Part shown: one piece after another, positions 2,091 to 35,565 of the stretch | Position numbering within the stretch: position 1 is the first letter of the stretch | Layout: each line of letters begins with the position of its first letter | Source: Chloroflexota bacterium | Lineage (GTDB): Bacteria > Chloroflexota > Dehalococcoidia > UBA6926 > JACQUM01 | Assembly: GCA_016210295.1 (NCBI GenBank) | Contig: JACQUM010000018.1 | Coordinates: forward strand, 1-35,565 | Direction: 5' to 3' | Length of the DNA: 35,565 bases | Made by a program: the position numbers and the translations under genes | The notes under the pieces: generated by a model | The model's database searches: none | What the model was told of the DNA's origin: nothing | What the model saw: the letters and a program-made list of their open reading frames with translations, nothing else

Positions 2091-3266
2091 CTAGGGTCCC
2101 CCAAAGACGGTGCTCTCCGGATGGTAGCCGGACCAGCCATACCACTCGGAGATAAAGGAGGGGACGAACTTGAGGTCCTCTGTCGCCAAGGAGTCTGAGA
2201 CCGCGTGGCCCAGGAGATCCCAGCGGGAGCCCGTCTCCCCGTCCACCAACTCAACACCCTGGGATAGCGTATTATTGGAAAACTTCAAGACCCGGCCCCC
2301 CACCGCCCGCGAATAGGCCAGCCCTGTACGGGCGCGACGGTCGTACACCACCACAATGGGCTCTCCGGCCAGGGTGTCGTTGACCACGCCCAAGGCCTCC
2401 TCCAGCTTCTCCAGTGGATAGGCGCGGAACTGACCCCGCACCTCAACCCCCACCACCAGCGTGTTGGCGGGCAGCCGACTGTCGCCAAAGCGCGCCTCGT
2501 CCTGCTGGAAGATCCCGATTCTGACGGGACGATAGCGATCCTGGAAGGGAGTATTGGGGGAGAGGACCAGAGACGCGGGGTGCTGCTTTTTCCACTGGCC
2601 CCAGGTCATCTGGGGCAGCGGGATCATAGCCAAGCGGGTCCCCCCCAGGGGCCCGCGCAGCGCCAGACCATCCAGGTGCGTCCACATCGTGCCCGTCTCC
2701 CGGTCCACCATGGTCAGCACCCCCTGCAAGAGCCCAAACACCTCGAAGGTGAGGTGGCGGCCTCCCACCAGGGGGTCGAAGCCGACCCCCGAGCTGCACT
2801 TGATTCAATAGGTGATGAGCAATGGCCGACCGGCCGCTGCATCGTTGACGATGTGGTGGTAGCGCACCATCCGGACCGGATAGGCCCGGGCCTCCCCTGC
2901 CCACTCCAGGCCCAAGACCAGATCATCGTCGGGCAAGAAGGTGGCCTCTTGGGCCTTCAGGAAGGCCGGGTCATCCAGCGGCACAAAGGCGGTGGTCCGG
3001 CGATAGGTCACATCCTCTTCCCCGGTGGTGGGCGGGACAGGTGAGGGGGAGCTTGGCGCAGGAAGGGACGCTTCTGGGGGAGCCGAGCTTAGCTCTGTTG
3101 TTGGCAGTGGCGTGACCCCAGGCGTTGGACCGGGAGCCAGCGCCGCAGAGGGCTCAGCCTCGCGCGCGGGCTCGAGGTCGCCGCTAGAGGTGCAGCCCGA
3201 TAGCGAGACCAGCCCCAAGATGGCCACCAAGAGAAGCGCTCGCCGGAAGCGTAGACTGGGGGACAT
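2091..3266 (-). CDS. DUF3179-family lipoprotein, candidate selenoprotein with an in-frame UGA at 2807-2805
   Basis: ORFs 2805..3323 and 2091..2768 are in the same frame, separated only by one TGA. The joined sequence reads ...AYPVRMVRYHHIVNDAAAGRPLLITY-[UGA]-IKCSSGVGFDPLVGGRHLTFEVFGLL. This matches the DUF3179 core ...VTYCPLCGSG..., with the UGA at the first Cys. The start is ATG 3266 (RBS GGAGGCAAGGGG) and gives the signal peptide MSPSLRFRRALLLVAILGLVSLSGC with a lipobox. Confidence 0.6.
2771..2790 (-). promoter_or_regulatory. SECIS-like hairpin downstream of the in-frame UGA
   Basis: The minus strand reads GGGGGUCG-GCUU-CGACCCCC, a perfect 8-bp stem with a 4-nt loop that starts with G. The stem begins 14 nt after the UGA and the loop 22 nt after it. 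Confidence 0.5.
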
Positions 3267-5117: not shown

Positions 5118-6577
5118 TGGCCCGCTCTTATCGCGACCTCCGCGAGTTCGTCGCTTTCCTGGAGTCCCGGGGAGAGCTCACGCGCATCAAGGCCGCGGTC
5201 TCCTGGGACCTGGAGATCTCCCAGATCTGCGATCGGGTGGTGAAGCAGAGCGGCCCTGCGCTCCTCTTCGAGAACGTTTCGGGTTACAAGACCCCCGTCC
5301 TCATCAACACCTTCGGCACGGCGCGGCGCATGGCCTGGGCCCTGGGCGTGGACGACCTGGACGAGCTTGGGGAGCGGGTGCGGAAGCTCCTCCACATGGT
5401 CCAAGGTCCGCCCCAGGGGCTGTTGAACAAGCTCCGCGCCCTCGCCGACCTGGCGAAGATGGCCCGCATCGCCCCGCAGCGGGTAGACGACGCCCCCTGT
5501 CAGGAGGTCGTTCTGAAGGGGGACGAGGTCGACCTGTTCAAGCTCCCCATCATCAAGTGCTGGCCCCAGGACGCCGGACGTTACATCACCCTCCCCCTCG
5601 TCATCACGCGCGACCCGGAGTCGGGCGTCTACAACCTGGGCATGTACCGGATGCAGGTCTTCGACAAGAGCACGACGGGGATGCACTGGCAGACCCACAA
5701 GGTGGGGACCCACCACCAGCGCCTCACCGAGGAGAAGGGAATGGAGCGCATGGAGGTGGCGGTGGCCTTGGGCGGCGACCCGGCCACTGTCTGGACGGGC
5801 TCCGCTCCCCTCCCCCCTGACGTGAGCGAGTACCTGGTGGCGGGCTTCCTTCGAGAAAGGCCTGTCGAGGTGGTGAAGGGCGTCACCGTGGACTTGGAGG
5901 TCCCCGCCCAGGCGGAGATCGTCCTGGAGGGGTACGTGGACGTGAAGGAGCGGCGAGTGGAGGGGCCCTTCGGCGACCACACGGGCTACTACTCGCTGGC
6001 GGAGGAGTACCCCGTCTTCCACGTCACCGCCGTGACGCACCGCCGCGACGCCATCTACCCCACTATCATCGTGGGCCGGCCTCCTCAGGAGGACTACTGG
6101 ATGGGCAAGGCGACGGAGCGCCTCTTCCTGCCCATCATCCAGATGGTCGTTCCGGAGGTGGCGGACATGAACATGCCCGCCGAGGGCGTGTTCCACAACC
6201 TGGTCGTCGTCTCTATCAAGAAGGAGTTTCCCGGCCACGCCCAGAAGGTGGCCCACGCCCTGTGGGGGCTGGGCCTGATGATGCTGGCCAAGGCCATCGT
6301 CGTGGTGGACCACAACGTCAACGTCCACGATCTCTCCGAGGTGGCCTGGCGGGTGACCAACAACATCGACGCCCGCCGGGACGTCTTCTTCGCCGAGGGG
6401 CCGGTGGACGACCTGGACCACGCGGGCTCGGCGCCCCGTTTCGCCAGCAAGCTGGGCATCGATGCGACGCGGAAGGGCAGGGGAGAGTTGGGCGGGCGGG
6501 AGTGGCCGCCGGACATCGTCATGGCGCCGGAGATGGTGGCGCTGGTGGAGCGCCGCTGGAAGGAGTACGGGCTGTGA
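5117..6577 (+). CDS. ubiD: UbiD-family (prenyl-FMN-dependent) aromatic decarboxylase
   Basis: The N-terminus is typical of UbiD (YRDLREFVAFLESRGELTRIK...LLFENV.GY), and the protein is 486 aa. Its ATG shares a base with the tetR TGA. Confidence 0.9.
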   Translation: MARSYRDLREFVAFLESRGELTRIKAAVSWDLEISQICDRVVKQSGPALLFENVSGYKTPVLINTFGTARRMAWALGVDDLDELGERVRKLLHMVQGPPQGLLNKLRALADLAKMARIAPQRVDDAPCQEVVLKGDEVDLFKLPIIKCWPQDAGRYITLPLVITRDPESGVYNLGMYRMQVFDKSTTGMHWQTHKVGTHHQRLTEEKGMERMEVAVALGGDPATVWTGSAPLPPDVSEYLVAGFLRERPVEVVKGVTVDLEVPAQAEIVLEGYVDVKERRVEGPFGDHTGYYSLAEEYPVFHVTAVTHRRDAIYPTIIVGRPPQEDYWMGKATERLFLPIIQMVVPEVADMNMPAEGVFHNLVVVSIKKEFPGHAQKVAHALWGLGLMMLAKAIVVVDHNVNVHDLSEVAWRVTNNIDARRDVFFAEGPVDDLDHAGSAPRFASKLGIDATRKGRGELGGREWPPDIVMAPEMVALVERRWKEYGL

Positions 6578-32021: not shown

Positions 32022-32053
32022 TTGACATTCCACCTAACTGGAAGGTTTATCAT
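32022..32053 (+). promoter_or_regulatory. MerR-type promoter with a long spacer and a CueR-like dyad
   Basis: It reads TTGACA (32022-27), a 20-nt spacer, then TATCAT (32048-53). The spacer carries ACATTCC-N8-GGAAGGT (32025-32046), resembling the E. coli copA operator ACCTTCC-N7-GGAAGGT as I remember it. Confidence 0.6.
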
Positions 32054-32092
32054 ACAAGCAAATGATAGAACCTAGGGATGGTGGGTGACGGA

Positions 32093-32575
32093 ATGAAGAT
32101 CGGCGAGTTGGCGAGAGAGGCAGGCGTCACGGCCAAGACAGTCCGCTACTACGAGCAACTGGGCCTCCTGGAGGAGCCTCCCAGGACCGAGGCGAGGTAC
32201 CGCATCTATGGGCCGGCGCACGCGGAGCGCCTGGAGTTCATCGTTCAGGCGAAGCGGCTGGGGCTCTTGCTGGGGGAGGTCCGCGACATCTTGACTTTGC
32301 ATGAGCAAAGACAGGCTCCCTGCGTCCATGTCTTGGCCCTGCTGGATCAGAAGCTGGAGCAGGTCCAGGCGATCATGGAGGACCTCCAGCAGTTCCAAAG
32401 GGAGGTCCGGCGCCTCAAGGCCGAGTCGGAGAGGCGCCTTGCGGGATTGCCCGTCGGCGCCCGCATCTGCGGCATCATCGAACAAGGCATCCATGCTCGA
32501 GGCGAGGTGGCCCTGGCCTGGCTGGAGGGCAGGGGAAAGGCCAGAAAGGACCGCTTGAGCCCTCGCCCATCTTGA
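32093..32575 (+). CDS. MerR-family (heavy-metal-responsive type) transcriptional regulator
   Basis: It has MKIGELAREAGVTAKTVRYYEQLGLL, a coiled-coil dimerisation helix, and Cys residues at APCVH and ARICGII. Confidence 0.9.
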   Translation: MKIGELAREAGVTAKTVRYYEQLGLLEEPPRTEARYRIYGPAHAERLEFIVQAKRLGLLLGEVRDILTLHEQRQAPCVHVLALLDQKLEQVQAIMEDLQQFQREVRRLKAESERRLAGLPVGARICGIIEQGIHARGEVALAWLEGRGKARKDRLSPRPS

Positions 32576-32643
32576 CTTTCCCTTCGTCAGGAAGGTGTAG
32601 GCTGGGCGCGAAGATAGAATGAAAGGGGAGGGTGATTGCTGAG

Positions 32644-33237
32644 ATGGCGCGGTCAATCGGGGCGGGAATACTTCCGATCGAGCCTGGGTACCTTGTCGCG
32701 GCGCTCCTGGTCTTCCTCGGTGGGTGCGCGCAGGACATGGGCTCCTCGACTGCCCCCGTGGCCACCTCTCCGACCACCGGGCAGATGACCATGACGGAGG
32801 CCGCGCCGCCGAGCGTCCCCCCCGTCAAGGGGTTCTACAATGAGCGAGAAATCTGGTTCATTCACACCGAAGCATCGGACAGTGGCGTCGCAGCGATGTT
32901 GACAGCCATGATGGACTCCAAAGTCTTGCTGGTGTCCTCCCTGGCTGGCGTGGCTCCCTCTTTGCTCGCTGACGTCTTCGTCTTTACGAACGGGGTTACG
33001 GGCGGTGGCCCCTTCGGCTTCCAACCGGACGTCTTCGATCGCGCGCCAGGTGACGAGGGTTACACACCTCTGCGAGTCGTGAATTTAGTGGCATGGAAGA
33101 AGGAGGGTACTTCGCCGCGGGAACTGAGGTCCGCGGAGGAGGTGCGAGTGGCAGAGTCTCGGGGAGAGGTTACCATTACACGCCCGGGCGCCGTGGTGAA
33201 CATGCCCATCCTCACATGGCCGGGGGGCCACAGGTAG
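32644..33237 (+). CDS. Conserved hypothetical lipoprotein in the MerR operon
   Basis: The signal peptide has the lipobox FLGGC. I do not recognise the mature domain (GFYNEREIWFIHTEASD...FTNGVTGGGPFGFQPDVFD...VVNMPILTWPGG). ATG 32644 follows GGGGAGGG. Confidence 0.7.
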   Translation: MARSIGAGILPIEPGYLVAALLVFLGGCAQDMGSSTAPVATSPTTGQMTMTEAAPPSVPPVKGFYNEREIWFIHTEASDSGVAAMLTAMMDSKVLLVSSLAGVAPSLLADVFVFTNGVTGGGPFGFQPDVFDRAPGDEGYTPLRVVNLVAWKKEGTSPRELRSAEEVRVAESRGEVTITRPGAVVNMPILTWPGGHR

Positions 33238-33283
33238 CGCGGACGCTTTGGCGGCAGCGGGGCGTACTTTTGGAGGACGAACA

Positions 33284-33619
33284 ATGAAGCGGTTTCTTCG
33301 TACGGAGGAATACATCCTGGCTGCGTTGAGCAGTCTGCTCCCACTGCCCTGGTGATGAGTGGTGCCAGGCCTGCTCGGGCTGCTGGGGGCCAGCAGCAGC
33401 GGGGCGGCCATGGTACCTGCGTTGCAGGTGCTGACCTGGCCCTTCCTGGGCCTTACGACTCTCACCCTGAGTTGGGGTTGGTACCGCGCCCTGGGTCACA
33501 GGGGGTGGCGCTCTCTCTGGGGTAGACGCAGCGTCTTGCTCCTCGTGGCCTCTACTAGCCTCAGCGCACTTCTCTGGGGGCTGCGCTTCGCCGGACTCCT
33601 CGGGGCACGGCCCTGGTGA
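33284..33619 (+). CDS. Small membrane protein, MerF/MerT-like, with tandem in-frame UGA-UGA (33353-33358); alternatively a 23-codon upstream ORF plus ORF 33359..33619
   Basis: ATG 33284 follows a strong RBS (GGAGGA, 6-nt spacing). The frame reads MKRFLRTEEYILAALSSLLPLPW-TGA-TGA-VVPGLLGLLGASSSGAAMVPAL..., all in one frame. The stops fall in the middle of a predicted transmembrane helix, where MerF has LVALCCFTPVLVILLGVVGLS. Confidence 0.4.
33379..33397 (+). promoter_or_regulatory. SECIS-like hairpin downstream of the UGA-UGA
   Basis: GCUGCUGG-GGG-CCAGCAGC forms a perfect 8-bp stem with a G-only loop. It starts 20 nt after the second UGA. Confidence 0.35.
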
Positions 33620-33714: not shown

Positions 33715-34191
33715 ATGGAGGGGGCTCCGGTGGTTTCAGCGTCCAATGATGCGCTGCGCGCTCAGGTCCGCGGCATCCTGGAGAAGTACCGCGGCCACAA
33801 GGGCGCCCTCCTCATGGGCCTCTTGGACGTCCAGTACACCCTGGGCTACGTGCCGGAGCTCACCGTCCAGGAGGCGGCGGAGGTCCTGAACGTCTCTTTC
33901 CCCGAGGTGTGGGGCGTCCTCACCTTCTACGCCGACTTCAAGGTGGGGAAGAAGGCCGACCATCTCATCGACGTGTGCATAGATACCCCCTGCCATGTCG
34001 AAGGCGCCGAGCGTATCTGGGAGGCGCTGGAACAGGCAGCAGCCCAGGGGACGGACTCCCCTCGTTTTGAGCTCCGGCGCGTCTCCTGCCCGCGCCTGTG
34101 CGCCAAGGCCCCGGTCATCGCCCTCGACCAGCAGTGGAAGGGAGAAATGACGGTAGAGAAGGCGGTGAAAGTCGCCTCCGACCTTCCTTGA
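33715..34191 (+). CDS. nuoE: NuoE/HoxE-type [2Fe-2S] subunit (24-kDa family)
   Basis: It has the thioredoxin-like 2Fe-2S pattern C..PC...(about 36 residues)...CPRLC, preceded by LLMGLLDVQYTLGYVP. Confidence 0.9.
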   Translation: MEGAPVVSASNDALRAQVRGILEKYRGHKGALLMGLLDVQYTLGYVPELTVQEAAEVLNVSFPEVWGVLTFYADFKVGKKADHLIDVCIDTPCHVEGAERIWEALEQAAAQGTDSPRFELRRVSCPRLCAKAPVIALDQQWKGEMTVEKAVKVASDLP

Positions 34192-34210
34192 CGACCAAGA
34201 AGGGGACTCC

Positions 34211-35565
34211 ATGCCATCGGCAGCCTACGAGAAACTGAGGGAGCGGGCCTGGAAGGCCTGGCAGCCCTGGGAGGAGAGCACGATGCCCCGCGTCACCGTG
34301 GGCATCTCCGCCTGCTCCCTCTCCGTCGGAGCGGGCGAGACCCTTGCTGTCATTCGGAGCGAGGTCCAGCGTCTGGGGCTGGAGGTCCGCATCATGGAGG
34401 TGGGGGACATCGGCTTCTGCTGGGCGGAGCCCGTTGTGGGGGTTGCGCACCCCGGGGAACCCTTCGTCCTCTACGGGCCGGTGGCGCCGGAGATCGCTGC
34501 CCGCTTCGTCGCCGACATCCTGGTTGCTCGTCTCCCGAGACGAGACGTGGCCCTCGGCACGATGGGAAAGGGAACGGTCGAGGGGATTTCCCCGCTCTCA
34601 GACCAGCCGTGGATGCGACACCAGCGCCGCCTGGTGATGAAGAACTTCGGGATCATCGGGCCCGGCAACCTGGACCACTATGTCGCCAAGGGCGGGTATT
34701 GGAGCTTCGACAAGGCGCTCTTCGAGATGAAGCCCGCCCAGGTGATCGACGAGGTCAAGGCCTCCAACCTCCGGGGCCGTGGGGGAGCCGTTTTCCCCAC
34801 CGGCACCAAGTGGGGCTTCATGACCAACGCTCCGGCCCCCAAGTACCTGGCTGTGAACGGGGAGGAGGGCGACCCCGGCGCCTTCACCGACAAGGGTATC
34901 GTGGAGAACGACCCCCACATGCTCCTGGAAGGTGCTCTCATCTCCGCCTATGCCATGGGCTGCACCAAGACATTCATCCACATCCGCGCCGAGTATTTCC
35001 TGGCTGTCGAGCGTCTGCGCCGCGCGGTGCGGGAGCTGGAGGAGGCGGGCCTGGTGGGCCACCACATCCTCGGCTCCGAATTCAGCCATGAGATCGAAGT
35101 TGAGGCCACGGGCCATGCTTACATTTGCGGCGAGGAGACAGCGCTCATGGAGTCGGTGGAGGGGAAGCGCGGCGCCCCCCGGCCCAGGCCTCCCTTCCCC
35201 GCTCAGTACGGCATCTTCGGCCGCCCCACCAACGTGAACAACGTGAAGACTATCTCCTATGTGCCCGCCGTGCTTCGCATGGGCGCTGACGCCTTCCTCA
35301 AGTTGGGCACCCAGAACGCCTCCGGTACCGCCATGCTCTCGCTCTCCGGCCACATCAACAAGCGCGGCATCGCGGAGATACCTGTTGGCCTCAACCTCAA
35401 GACCGTGATCGAGGATGTGGCGGGCGGCGTACGCAACGGGAAGAAGGCCAAGGCGCTCCAGTGCGGCGGCCCCCTCGGCGGCCTCATGGCCGCGACCGAG
35501 ATGGACATGATCGCCGAGTTCCAGGCCATGACCGCCAAGAGCTCTCCCCTTGGCTCCGGCGGCAT
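34211..35565 (+). CDS. nuoF: NuoF/HoxF/HydB-type NAD(H)- and FMN-binding flavoprotein subunit; 3' end lies outside the window
   Basis: I translated this by hand, as it is absent from the track because no stop falls in the window. It reads MPSAAYEKLRERAW..., with an N-terminal thioredoxin-like extension, then LRGRGGAVFPTGTKW, NGEEGDPGAF, YICGEETALMESVEGKRG and NVNNVKT. Confidence 0.9.
   Translation, partial: MPSAAYEKLRERAWKAWQPWEESTMPRVTVGISACSLSVGAGETLAVIRSEVQRLGLEVRIMEVGDIGFCWAEPVVGVAHPGEPFVLYGPVAPEIAARFVADILVARLPRRDVALGTMGKGTVEGISPLSDQPWMRHQRRLVMKNFGIIGPGNLDHYVAKGGYWSFDKALFEMKPAQVIDEVKASNLRGRGGAVFPTGTKWGFMTNAPAPKYLAVNGEEGDPGAFTDKGIVENDPHMLLEGALISAYAMGCTKTFIHIRAEYFLAVERLRRAVRELEEAGLVGHHILGSEFSHEIEVEATGHAYICGEETALMESVEGKRGAPRPRPPFPAQYGIFGRPTNVNNVKTISYVPAVLRMGADAFLKLGTQNASGTAMLSLSGHINKRGIAEIPVGLNLKTVIEDVAGGVRNGKKAKALQCGGPLGGLMAATEMDMIAEFQAMTAKSSPLGSGG

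Follow-up and report, generated by a model that had tools for sequence, protein, structure and literature searches.

Two adjacent UGA codons in a predicted MerT-like membrane selenoprotein gene of Dehalococcoidia and their probable decoding as a vicinal Sec-Sec pair from a single SECIS-like hairpin

Two adjacent TGA codons, located at positions 33353-33358 of a 35,565-bp contig from a Chloroflexi metagenome-assembled genome (MAG), raise the question of whether they close a short leader or are both read as selenocysteine (Sec, U) within a single gene. The contig was analysed over its whole length and is referred to here as the window. In it, ATG 33284 opens 23 codons (MKRFLRTEEYILAALSSLLPLPW) that end in TGA TGA, after which the same frame runs on (GTG GTG CCA GGC...) for 86 codons up to the TGA at 33617-33619. 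The original prediction, made from the letters of this stretch, had proposed that the joined open reading frame (ORF) may encode a Sec-Sec metal-transport protein. The start signals on which it relied were confirmed in the window sequence, namely a 23-codon ORF preceded by a GGAGGA ribosome-binding site at 6-nt spacing and ending in TGA TGA, and a GTG at 33359 devoid of any such site, with no purine-rich motif ahead of it. The GenBank entry for 33284-33619 covers just the last 85 residues, as hypothetical protein HY685_00850. Because both UGAs are kept in the relatives of this gene and a hairpin of the selenocysteine insertion sequence (SECIS) type follows them, a single 111-residue protein with two Sec residues is the most likely product. 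Positions 33284-33619 are, on the evidence presented below, probably one gene encoding a MerT-like membrane selenoprotein with Sec24 and Sec25, decoded in a SelB-dependent manner from one SECIS (Table 1), and as far as sequence can tell the gene represents a real, unannotated selenoprotein family.

An initial protein search with the joined ORF, in which U had been replaced by C, returned 37 relatives, nearly all of them 85-87 residues long with the N-terminus VVPGLLG; it follows that gene callers had placed their starts right behind a stop. Two Joint Genome Institute (JGI) translations, P0020 and P0038, were full-length, spanning both ORFs and reading LPLPW-WW-VVPG, where the WW was taken to mean the product of a translation table in which TGA encodes Trp. 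The upstream frame was conserved in all relatives, and homologues that span both ORFs do therefore exist. On the contigs of three relatives the DNA read CTN CCN TGG TGA TGA GTG GTN CCN GGC, preceded in the same frame by an ORF of about 23 codons. One genome per species was scanned with the peptide patterns PAL[QR][VA]LTWP and LW[GTS]LRF[AG]G[LV]L, both of which are confined to the downstream part and exclude the UGA site itself, and this yielded 44 loci (L005-L048), all from Dehalococcoidia, SAR202 or other Chloroflexota MAGs. TGG-TGA-TGA was present in each of the 49 loci made up of the window and L001-L048, among which a frameshifted appearance was limited to L035, L036 and L047. In the 40 non-redundant intact loci the internal stops were TGA in 80 of 80 cases, whereas the terminal stop of the same gene varied (TGA in 8 loci, TAG in 18 and TAA in 14).

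The use of a site-neutral pattern, allowing TGN at both positions, in a metagenome census gave 64 contigs with TGA-TGA, 17 with TGC-TGA (Cys-Sec, or CU) and two unrelated matches, and no family members with TGA-TGY or TGY-TGY were found with it. Sec-Sec (UU) was thus present at the site in 113 of 130 family loci, and the first codon, being TGA in 113 and TGC in 17 and never TGG or TGT among these, is therefore held as a Sec or Cys position. A sequencing artefact or a pseudogene was ruled out because about 130 independent contigs keep the site. Reassignment of the code, with TGA read as Trp or Gly, was also ruled out, as TGA terminates both merR and the selenoprotein gene in the window, and 8 of the 40 homologues. 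An additional in-frame TGA was observed in L001 at about position 5240 (SR-U-SF), where the homologues all have an Arg codon, CGN in the case of the near-identical L020. This TGA probably arose by mutation or is an error of that contig.

When 1.84 billion representative proteins were searched exhaustively with HMMER, the database sequences that carry WW at the site serving as the query, a distant homologue was identified, P0146 (E = 5.6e-4), which reads ...ASLPW-CC-VLPGLL and whose DNA (locus L049) has TGC TGC at the site. Position 1 is Sec or Cys, and at position 2 the family proper has Sec and P0146 has Cys; with Cys at both aligned positions in relatives, the site therefore bears the classical signature of a selenoprotein. 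The UU and CU forms differ by a single base (TGA vs TGC) and share the same SECIS. Among the possible Cys-containing orthologues, CC was represented by P0146 and CU by the 17 TGC-TGA contigs, and UC was not found in these searches. P0146, the only Cys-Cys homologue found, lies directly downstream of a heavy-metal P-type ATPase, with no mer operon (L049, 68-1744 and 1777-2082).

A different account of the locus would have a 23-residue hydrophobic leader followed by a separate protein of 85-86 residues, made by termination and reinitiation at GTG 33359, with the hairpin acting in regulation or pausing. Such an arrangement would be in keeping with the fact that gene callers annotate the downstream ORF only, with the position of the GTG directly beside the stops in the window, and with tandem stops being a classical strong terminator. 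The 40 loci, however, argue for one continuous frame. Codon-position entropy was 0.93/0.32/1.37 over the 10 codons before the UGAs and 0.63/0.30/1.14 over the 25 codons after them, and farther 5', outside the ORF, it was uniform at about 1.9; the upstream 23 codons show the evolutionary pattern of coding sequence. Shine-Dalgarno motifs of the GGAG/AGGA type were found in the homologues only ahead of the upstream ATG and not ahead of the post-UGA codon. The latter was GTG in 21 of 40 loci and GTC, GTA, GTT, ATC or ATT in the other 19, where the next canonical start is 4-21 codons on, inside the conserved helix, and with a start codon in only these 21 loci reinitiation is therefore not conserved. 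Furthermore, both internal stops are invariably TGA, without a single TAA or TAG, although the terminal stop is free to vary, and TGC takes the place of the first stop in close relatives and of both in P0146, where the two parts are fused. A leader with restart is consequently regarded as highly improbable, and the claim that one frame crosses TGA TGA was borne out by coding-type entropy on both sides and the lack of a conserved restart.

Downstream of the UGAs, the original prediction had noted a perfect 8-bp hairpin with a GGG loop at 33379-33397, beginning 20 nt past the second UGA. These coordinates were exact, but the extent was not, as this hairpin is really the top of a longer structure (33368-33409; hairpin 1) with a second conserved hairpin behind it. 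All of the 42 aligned sequences fold as one long hairpin, with a conserved 12-bp lower helix that contains a U-U mismatch, below an upper stem that varies. The start of the apical loop is 28-34 nt from the first UGA and 25-31 nt from the second (31 and 28 nt in the window), and a G occurs within the first two loop positions in 39 of 42 sequences. The published model of the bacterial SECIS (bSECIS) has a loop of 3-9 nt, an upper stem of 4-16 bp, a G in the first two loop positions, a distance of 16-37 nt from the UGA and a minimum free energy (MFE) of -7.5 kcal/mol or lower (PMC13188914). The window hairpin, with a 3-nt GGG loop, 8 bp, a loop G, distances of 31 and 28 nt and an MFE of -30.1 kcal/mol, agrees with this model in every respect and for both UGAs.

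Hairpin 1 is also under RNA-level selection. In the alignment, 92% of cells were paired, compared with 32-48% when the partners were slid by 1-3 columns, and the observed covariation was reached by 0 of 500 shuffles. When synonymous codons were shuffled, a z of -3.3 was obtained for the window and a mean of -2.65 for the set; a control region within these genes gave -0.38. The Cys-Cys homologue P0146 showed no excess structure (z = -0.27). Hairpin 2, which corresponds to alignment columns 74-90 in the homologues, gave a mean z of -2.45 in the synonymous shuffle and showed covariation at one pair (CG in 24 sequences, UA in 14) that couples the third, synonymous position of a Pro codon to the second position of a Gln/Arg codon, a replacement change. 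It is present in the UU and CU forms and not in P0146. As a SECIS for the second UGA it was ruled out, since the single-UGA Cys-Sec forms keep it and its loop, 62-65 nt from the UGAs, is too distant for a standard SECIS. A search of Rfam at the gathering threshold returned tRNA-Glu alone, with only chance matches to long non-coding and small RNAs near the site. To our knowledge, Rfam contains no general model for bacterial SECIS elements, and this null result is therefore uninformative.

The conserved UGAs, the Cys-aligned relatives and the SECIS together support the Sec-Sec reading with which the analysis began. Under it, translation would begin at ATG 33284, and SelB carrying Sec-tRNA(Sec), recruited by the single hairpin 33368-33409, would decode each UGA as selenocysteine, the loop being within the usual 16-37 nt of both. 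Sec would thereby be inserted at both codons, and the product would carry two neighbouring Sec residues within LPLPW-UU-VxPGLLG, a motif of its first transmembrane segment, at the place occupied in MerT, MerF and MerC by the essential Cys-Cys pair of CCxxP. That both UGAs are decoded from one SECIS, to give a natural bacterial vicinal Sec-Sec and a membrane-embedded diselenol/diselenide metal site conserved in Dehalococcoidia and SAR202, is considered probable.

Genes for known selenoproteins that share a contig with the UU gene lend indirect support to the use of Sec by these organisms. The window contains a DUF3179 gene, the joined 391-residue product of which matches PF11376 over positions 7-292 of 292 (E = 1e-64), and an 8-bp hairpin with the loop GCUU begins 17 nt past its UGA. 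The site was located through its U-x-x-C motif and then verified, a blind scan for TGA-bridged ORFs being too noisy in GC-rich DNA; a second Cys-position UGA in the window, as had been claimed, was in this way found on the minus strand. In annotation, this gene has probably been split or truncated. DUF3179 is listed as a selenoprotein family (PMC9312934), and Dehalococcoidia MAGs are among the most selenoprotein-rich bacteria (PMC13326102). On SAR202-type contigs, a UGSC-family selenoprotein gene (GLGD-U-GSC) was observed about 1.7 kb upstream of the UU gene (L002, 3254; L001, 3134-3436). In L003, a redoxin-like gene at 5810-6442, split by a TGA at 6128 (FFTGVG-U-AKC, a UxxC motif), lies just downstream of the UU-bearing mer operon. 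In L019, a gene for a small Cys-rich GDCCVxC (seleno)protein (NF041374, E = 3.5e-29) directly precedes the UU gene at a distance of about 310 nt, and this neighbour was observed at three loci in all.

Given the proposed likeness to mercury transporters, 31 family members were compared with Pfam and NCBIfam profiles. In Pfam, only spurious matches to Cyt_bd_oxida_II were obtained, together with a weak MerC match in 2 of the 31 (E = 0.03). In NCBIfam, MerTP_fusion matched 29 members (best E = 2e-4) with the UU site covered, merT_RC607 matched three, and NF045683 (MerT_CopZ_Se) matched five at an E of at least 0.03, short of its cut-off of 375 bits. P0146 matched merT_RC607 with an E of 2.4e-6 over positions 17-93 of 97, and this near-whole-profile match therefore makes it a bridge from the UU family to MerT. 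Alignment by hhalign with reference sequences of Tn501 MerT and of MerF, both 100% identical to the annotated plasmid genes, placed UU on CC in each case, over 82 columns for MerT (P = 0.019) and 38 columns for MerF (P = 0.033). The similarity to MerT is weak but consistent, and the UU family appears to be remotely related to MerT, nearer to the three-helix MerT than to MerF. The resemblance to the first helix of MerF that had been noted in the original prediction held only weakly, the pair falling on CC in a weak alignment and MerT being the nearer relative. Profile searches with the joined protein had a similarly divided outcome, in that MerT-type matches were returned by NCBIfam but were weak and below every cut-off, and none was returned by Pfam.

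The product is probably a three-helix membrane protein. Trp, Arg and His are frequent in the loop that joins helices 2 and 3, and the positive charge of this loop and of the N-terminus suggests a MerT-like, N-in topology of three helices. An AlphaFold2 model built from a 32-sequence alignment was of low confidence (predicted local distance difference test score 68, predicted template modelling score 0.35), and Foldseek found no match for it in the PDB, so nothing was drawn from the fold. A sequence-profile search of the PDB gave only chance matches to CFTR (E of about 0.6).

The regulator at the head of the operon was confirmed as a member of the MerR family by Pfam MerR_1 (E = 8.7e-18) and MerR-DNA-bind (E = 6.7e-14); in NCBIfam it matched CadR-PbrR, ZntR, MerR and CueR at E values of 1e-23 to 5e-30, all under the equivalog cut-offs. 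Two predicted promoters of near-identical layout, TTGAC(A/T) and TAnnnT separated by a 20-nt spacer with TTCC-N8-GGAA, can be read in the sequence, one before merR and the other over its stop, in a layout that we take to resemble the CueR/MerR operator. A sigma-70 scan with spacers of 16-18 nt was blank at promoter 1, whose 20-nt spacer exceeds its range. Promoter 2 would be expected to drive the DUF7482 gene and the selenoprotein gene, so that the latter would be co-expressed with the DUF7482 lipoprotein gene from a MerR-type promoter. The DUF7482 neighbour was found, among the loci, only in the window and on one metagenome contig. Elsewhere the surroundings include mercury-resistance genes: in L003 the order is MerR, MerA (TIGR02053, 541 bits vs a cut-off of 454), an HMA protein, the UU gene and a MerE-like gene, and 13 of the 49 loci have MerR close by on the same strand, while about 10 have MerA there. 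In the metagenome contigs, most of those concerned being short, MerA is adjacent in 7 of 17 CU and 7 of 64 UU cases. Further neighbours are ArsR-type regulators, the GDCCVxC (seleno)protein, an MFS transporter, a protein of 330-345 residues from an unknown family and a 79-residue membrane protein. Judging from the context of these relatives, the handling of a soft metal, probably Hg(II), is a plausible function for the UU protein. Such a metal, Hg(II) being the likeliest, would be bound by the Sec-Sec pair as a diselenolate and handed across the membrane. Metal specificity, direction of transport and regulation, like the insertion of Sec at both codons, are inferred.

Several observations weigh against this reading and have to be set beside it. 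No tRNA-Sec was detected in a scan that covered the window and 47 loci only, and no characterised case of two adjacent UGAs being served by one bacterial SECIS was found in the literature. On a short contig, L050, the site reads TGC TGG (Cys-Trp; 302-307), downstream of a MerA C-terminus, which may represent decay of the copy, an error in sequencing or a natural change from Sec to Trp. The joined window protein had no Pfam match, the MerTP_fusion score reached about 21 of the 180 bits required, and merT_RC607 likewise stayed under its cut-off. The window protein has no Cys anywhere outside the UU site, so that the second Cys pair of MerT and MerF is missing, and the low-confidence AlphaFold2 model breaks at LPLP just before UU instead of forming a single unbroken helix. 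The window has MerR and the DUF7482 gene but no MerA. Finally, a diselenolate might hold Hg(II) too tightly to pass it on.

The lack of a precedent for the shared SECIS and the Cys-Trp form in L050, together with the tolerance of Cys at position 1 that is evident from the Cys-Sec form, could be accommodated by selenium-independent read-through at one or both UGAs, through a near-cognate Trp- or Cys-tRNA or another suppressor, perhaps with only the second UGA as a true Sec codon. The product would then have a W/C pair, or would be a mixture of truncated and full-length protein. This is considered unlikely, as the first codon alternates between TGA and TGC across the 130 loci without ever being TGG or TGT, the SECIS loop is within range of both codons, the selected hairpin accompanies every UGA form and is missing in the CC homologue, and TGA is an ordinary stop in these genomes, as at the ends of merR and of the selenoprotein gene in the window.

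It is also possible, and compatible with Sec-Sec decoding, that the gene encodes a real Sec-Sec membrane selenoprotein which is not a mercury importer but a thiol/selenol redox relay, a device for handling selenium or chalcophile elements (Cu(I), Ag, Cd, As), or a metal sink. Points in its favour are that the window operon combines MerR and the DUF7482 lipoprotein without MerA, that unrelated neighbours (such as the MFS transporter, the 330-345-residue protein and the 79-residue membrane protein) occur at many loci, that the CC homologue adjoins a P-type metal ATPase, that the window MerR scores best against CadR/PbrR and ZntR, and that a second Cys pair for metal hand-off is lacking. However, MerA is among the recurrent partners and passes its equivalog cut-off, genes of the MerE-like, HMA/MerP-like and MerR types recur nearby, the partners that can be named are mercury-specific, and the sole family similarities are to MerT models. 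A function of this other kind is therefore thought doubtful, though by no means negligible, and mercury handling by a Sec-Sec protein is retained as the preferred reading.

Table 1. Positions of the selenoprotein gene, its predicted RNA elements and other features in the 35,565-bp window.
Feature	Position	Strand	Remarks
MerR-type promoter/operator 1	32022-32053	+	TTGACA, 20-nt spacer with TTCC-N8-GGAA, TATCAT; upstream of merR; sequence reading
MerR-family metal-responsive regulator gene	32078-32575	+	ATG 32093 possible alternative start
MerR-type promoter/operator 2	32572-32603	+	TTGACT, 20-nt spacer with TTCC-N8-GGAA, TAGGCT; overlaps merR stop
DUF7482 gene, predicted lipoprotein	32632-33237	+	LVFLGGC lipobox; first of two-gene unit; PF24298, E = 2.6e-31
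Shine-Dalgarno GGAGGA	33272-33277	+	Read from sequence; ends 6 nt ahead of ATG 33284
Full predicted selenoprotein ORF, 111 residues	33284-33619	+	M1-W23, U24, U25, V26-W111, stop TGA
First in-frame UGA (predicted Sec24)	33353-33355	+	Opposite TGC (Cys) in 17 metagenome contigs and P0146
Second in-frame UGA (predicted Sec25)	33356-33358	+	TGA in every UU/CU form; TGC in P0146
SECIS-like hairpin 1	33368-33409	+	MFE -30.1 kcal/mol; conserved; under RNA-level selection
Hairpin 1, lower helices	33368-33371/33406-33409 and 33374-33377/33400-33403	+	
Hairpin 1, apical 8-bp stem	33379-33386/33390-33397; loop GGG 33387-33389	+	GCTGCTGG-GGG-CCAGCAGC
Conserved hairpin 2	33414-33430	+	7 bp, loop GUU
DUF3179 gene	2091-3266	-	TGA 2805-2807; motif LLITY-U-IKC; PF11376 match

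Behind the selenoprotein gene, at 33715-35563 on the plus strand of the window, are a gene for a NuoE-like, thioredoxin-like 2Fe-2S ferredoxin and a NuoF-like (Complex1_51K) gene, which may be part of a module, for a formate dehydrogenase or a hydrogenase, that continues beyond the contig end.

Dehalococcoidia and SAR202 occur in abundance in groundwater and the dark ocean. All of the NCBI records retrieved for the UU family are hypothetical proteins of 85-87 residues and the family is matched by no curated model at threshold, so that more than 100 contigs need re-annotation, with a selenoprotein of some 111 residues as the product. The current view for bacteria is that each UGA requires its own closely spaced SECIS. 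A conserved UGA-UGA with one hairpin is a natural test of the limits of SECIS spacing and of the reloading of SelB after a ribosome step of 3 nt, and if the proposed decoding is correct, the bacterial SelB-SECIS system acts twice in succession at a 3-nt offset. A vicinal diselenol at a MerT-like metal-entry site would tie the supply of selenium to the handling of mercury, and some mercury-handling systems of deep-ocean and groundwater bacteria would then rely on selenium. Because the affinity of Hg for Se is far above that for S, one may also ask how such a site would release its metal. The CC, CU and UU forms, side by side, constitute a rare series for the stepwise replacement of Cys by Sec.

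Of the systems already described, MerT (Tn501, PF02411; Bacillus RC607-type, NF033560) is one of the closest. It shares with the UU protein the CCxxP motif of the first helix (CCLGP in MerT vs UUVVP in the window), a length of about 110 residues, three predicted helices and a positive loop between helices 2 and 3, and the relatives of the UU protein occur in mer operons beside MerA and MerP-like genes. Unlike the UU protein, MerT has a cytoplasmic pair, C76/C82, and Cys in place of Sec. MerF (pMER327/419, for which a nuclear magnetic resonance structure exists) has a comparable vicinal pair, xxP and Leu/Gly-rich helix (LVALCCFTPVLVILLG vs LPLPWUUVVPGLLGLLG), but consists of two helices with a C-terminal CC pair (C71/C72), whereas the UU protein has three predicted helices and lacks the second pair.

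MerT-family selenoproteins have been predicted in Carboxydothermus and in ocean metagenomes and are curated by NCBI with a CU motif, examples being ABB16073.1 of Carboxydothermus hydrogenoformans ('putative mercuric transport protein') and WP_250634603.1 (bioRxiv 10.1101/2022.07.06.499078; PMC9312934; PMC13188914), with NF045683 of NCBIfam as a related model. They resemble the UU protein in being small, heavy-metal transporter-like membrane proteins with Sec at the vicinal-Cys site of the first helix and in their linkage to mercury-resistance genes, and the UU family itself includes a CU sub-clade, the 17 metagenome contigs. They differ in that the window family mostly has Sec at both positions, has no Pfam MerT match and matches NF045683 weakly; in the retrieved loci, it was confined to Dehalococcoidia, SAR202 and other Chloroflexota. 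Reviews from 2022 and 2026 give the known MerT selenoprotein family one Sec, and list no UU-motif family (PMC9312934; PMC13188914). As MerT-family selenoproteins with one Sec were already known, it is only the Sec-Sec pair, the vicinal diselenol that the original prediction had called highly unusual in a transporter of thiophilic metals, that is new. Text searches of the literature on adjacent or consecutive Sec codons in bacteria returned nothing relevant, and no invariant vicinal Sec-Sec was found to have been reported.

Bacterial families with several Sec residues carry UxxU or CxU motifs, UxxU being cited for the NF041115 metal-binding, Prx-like and FmdB-family proteins (PMC13188914). Like the UU protein, the UxxU proteins are bacterial and combine two Sec residues within a single metal- or redox-active site; their UGAs, however, are two codons apart, whereas those of the UU gene are adjacent, would share one SECIS and fall within a predicted membrane segment.

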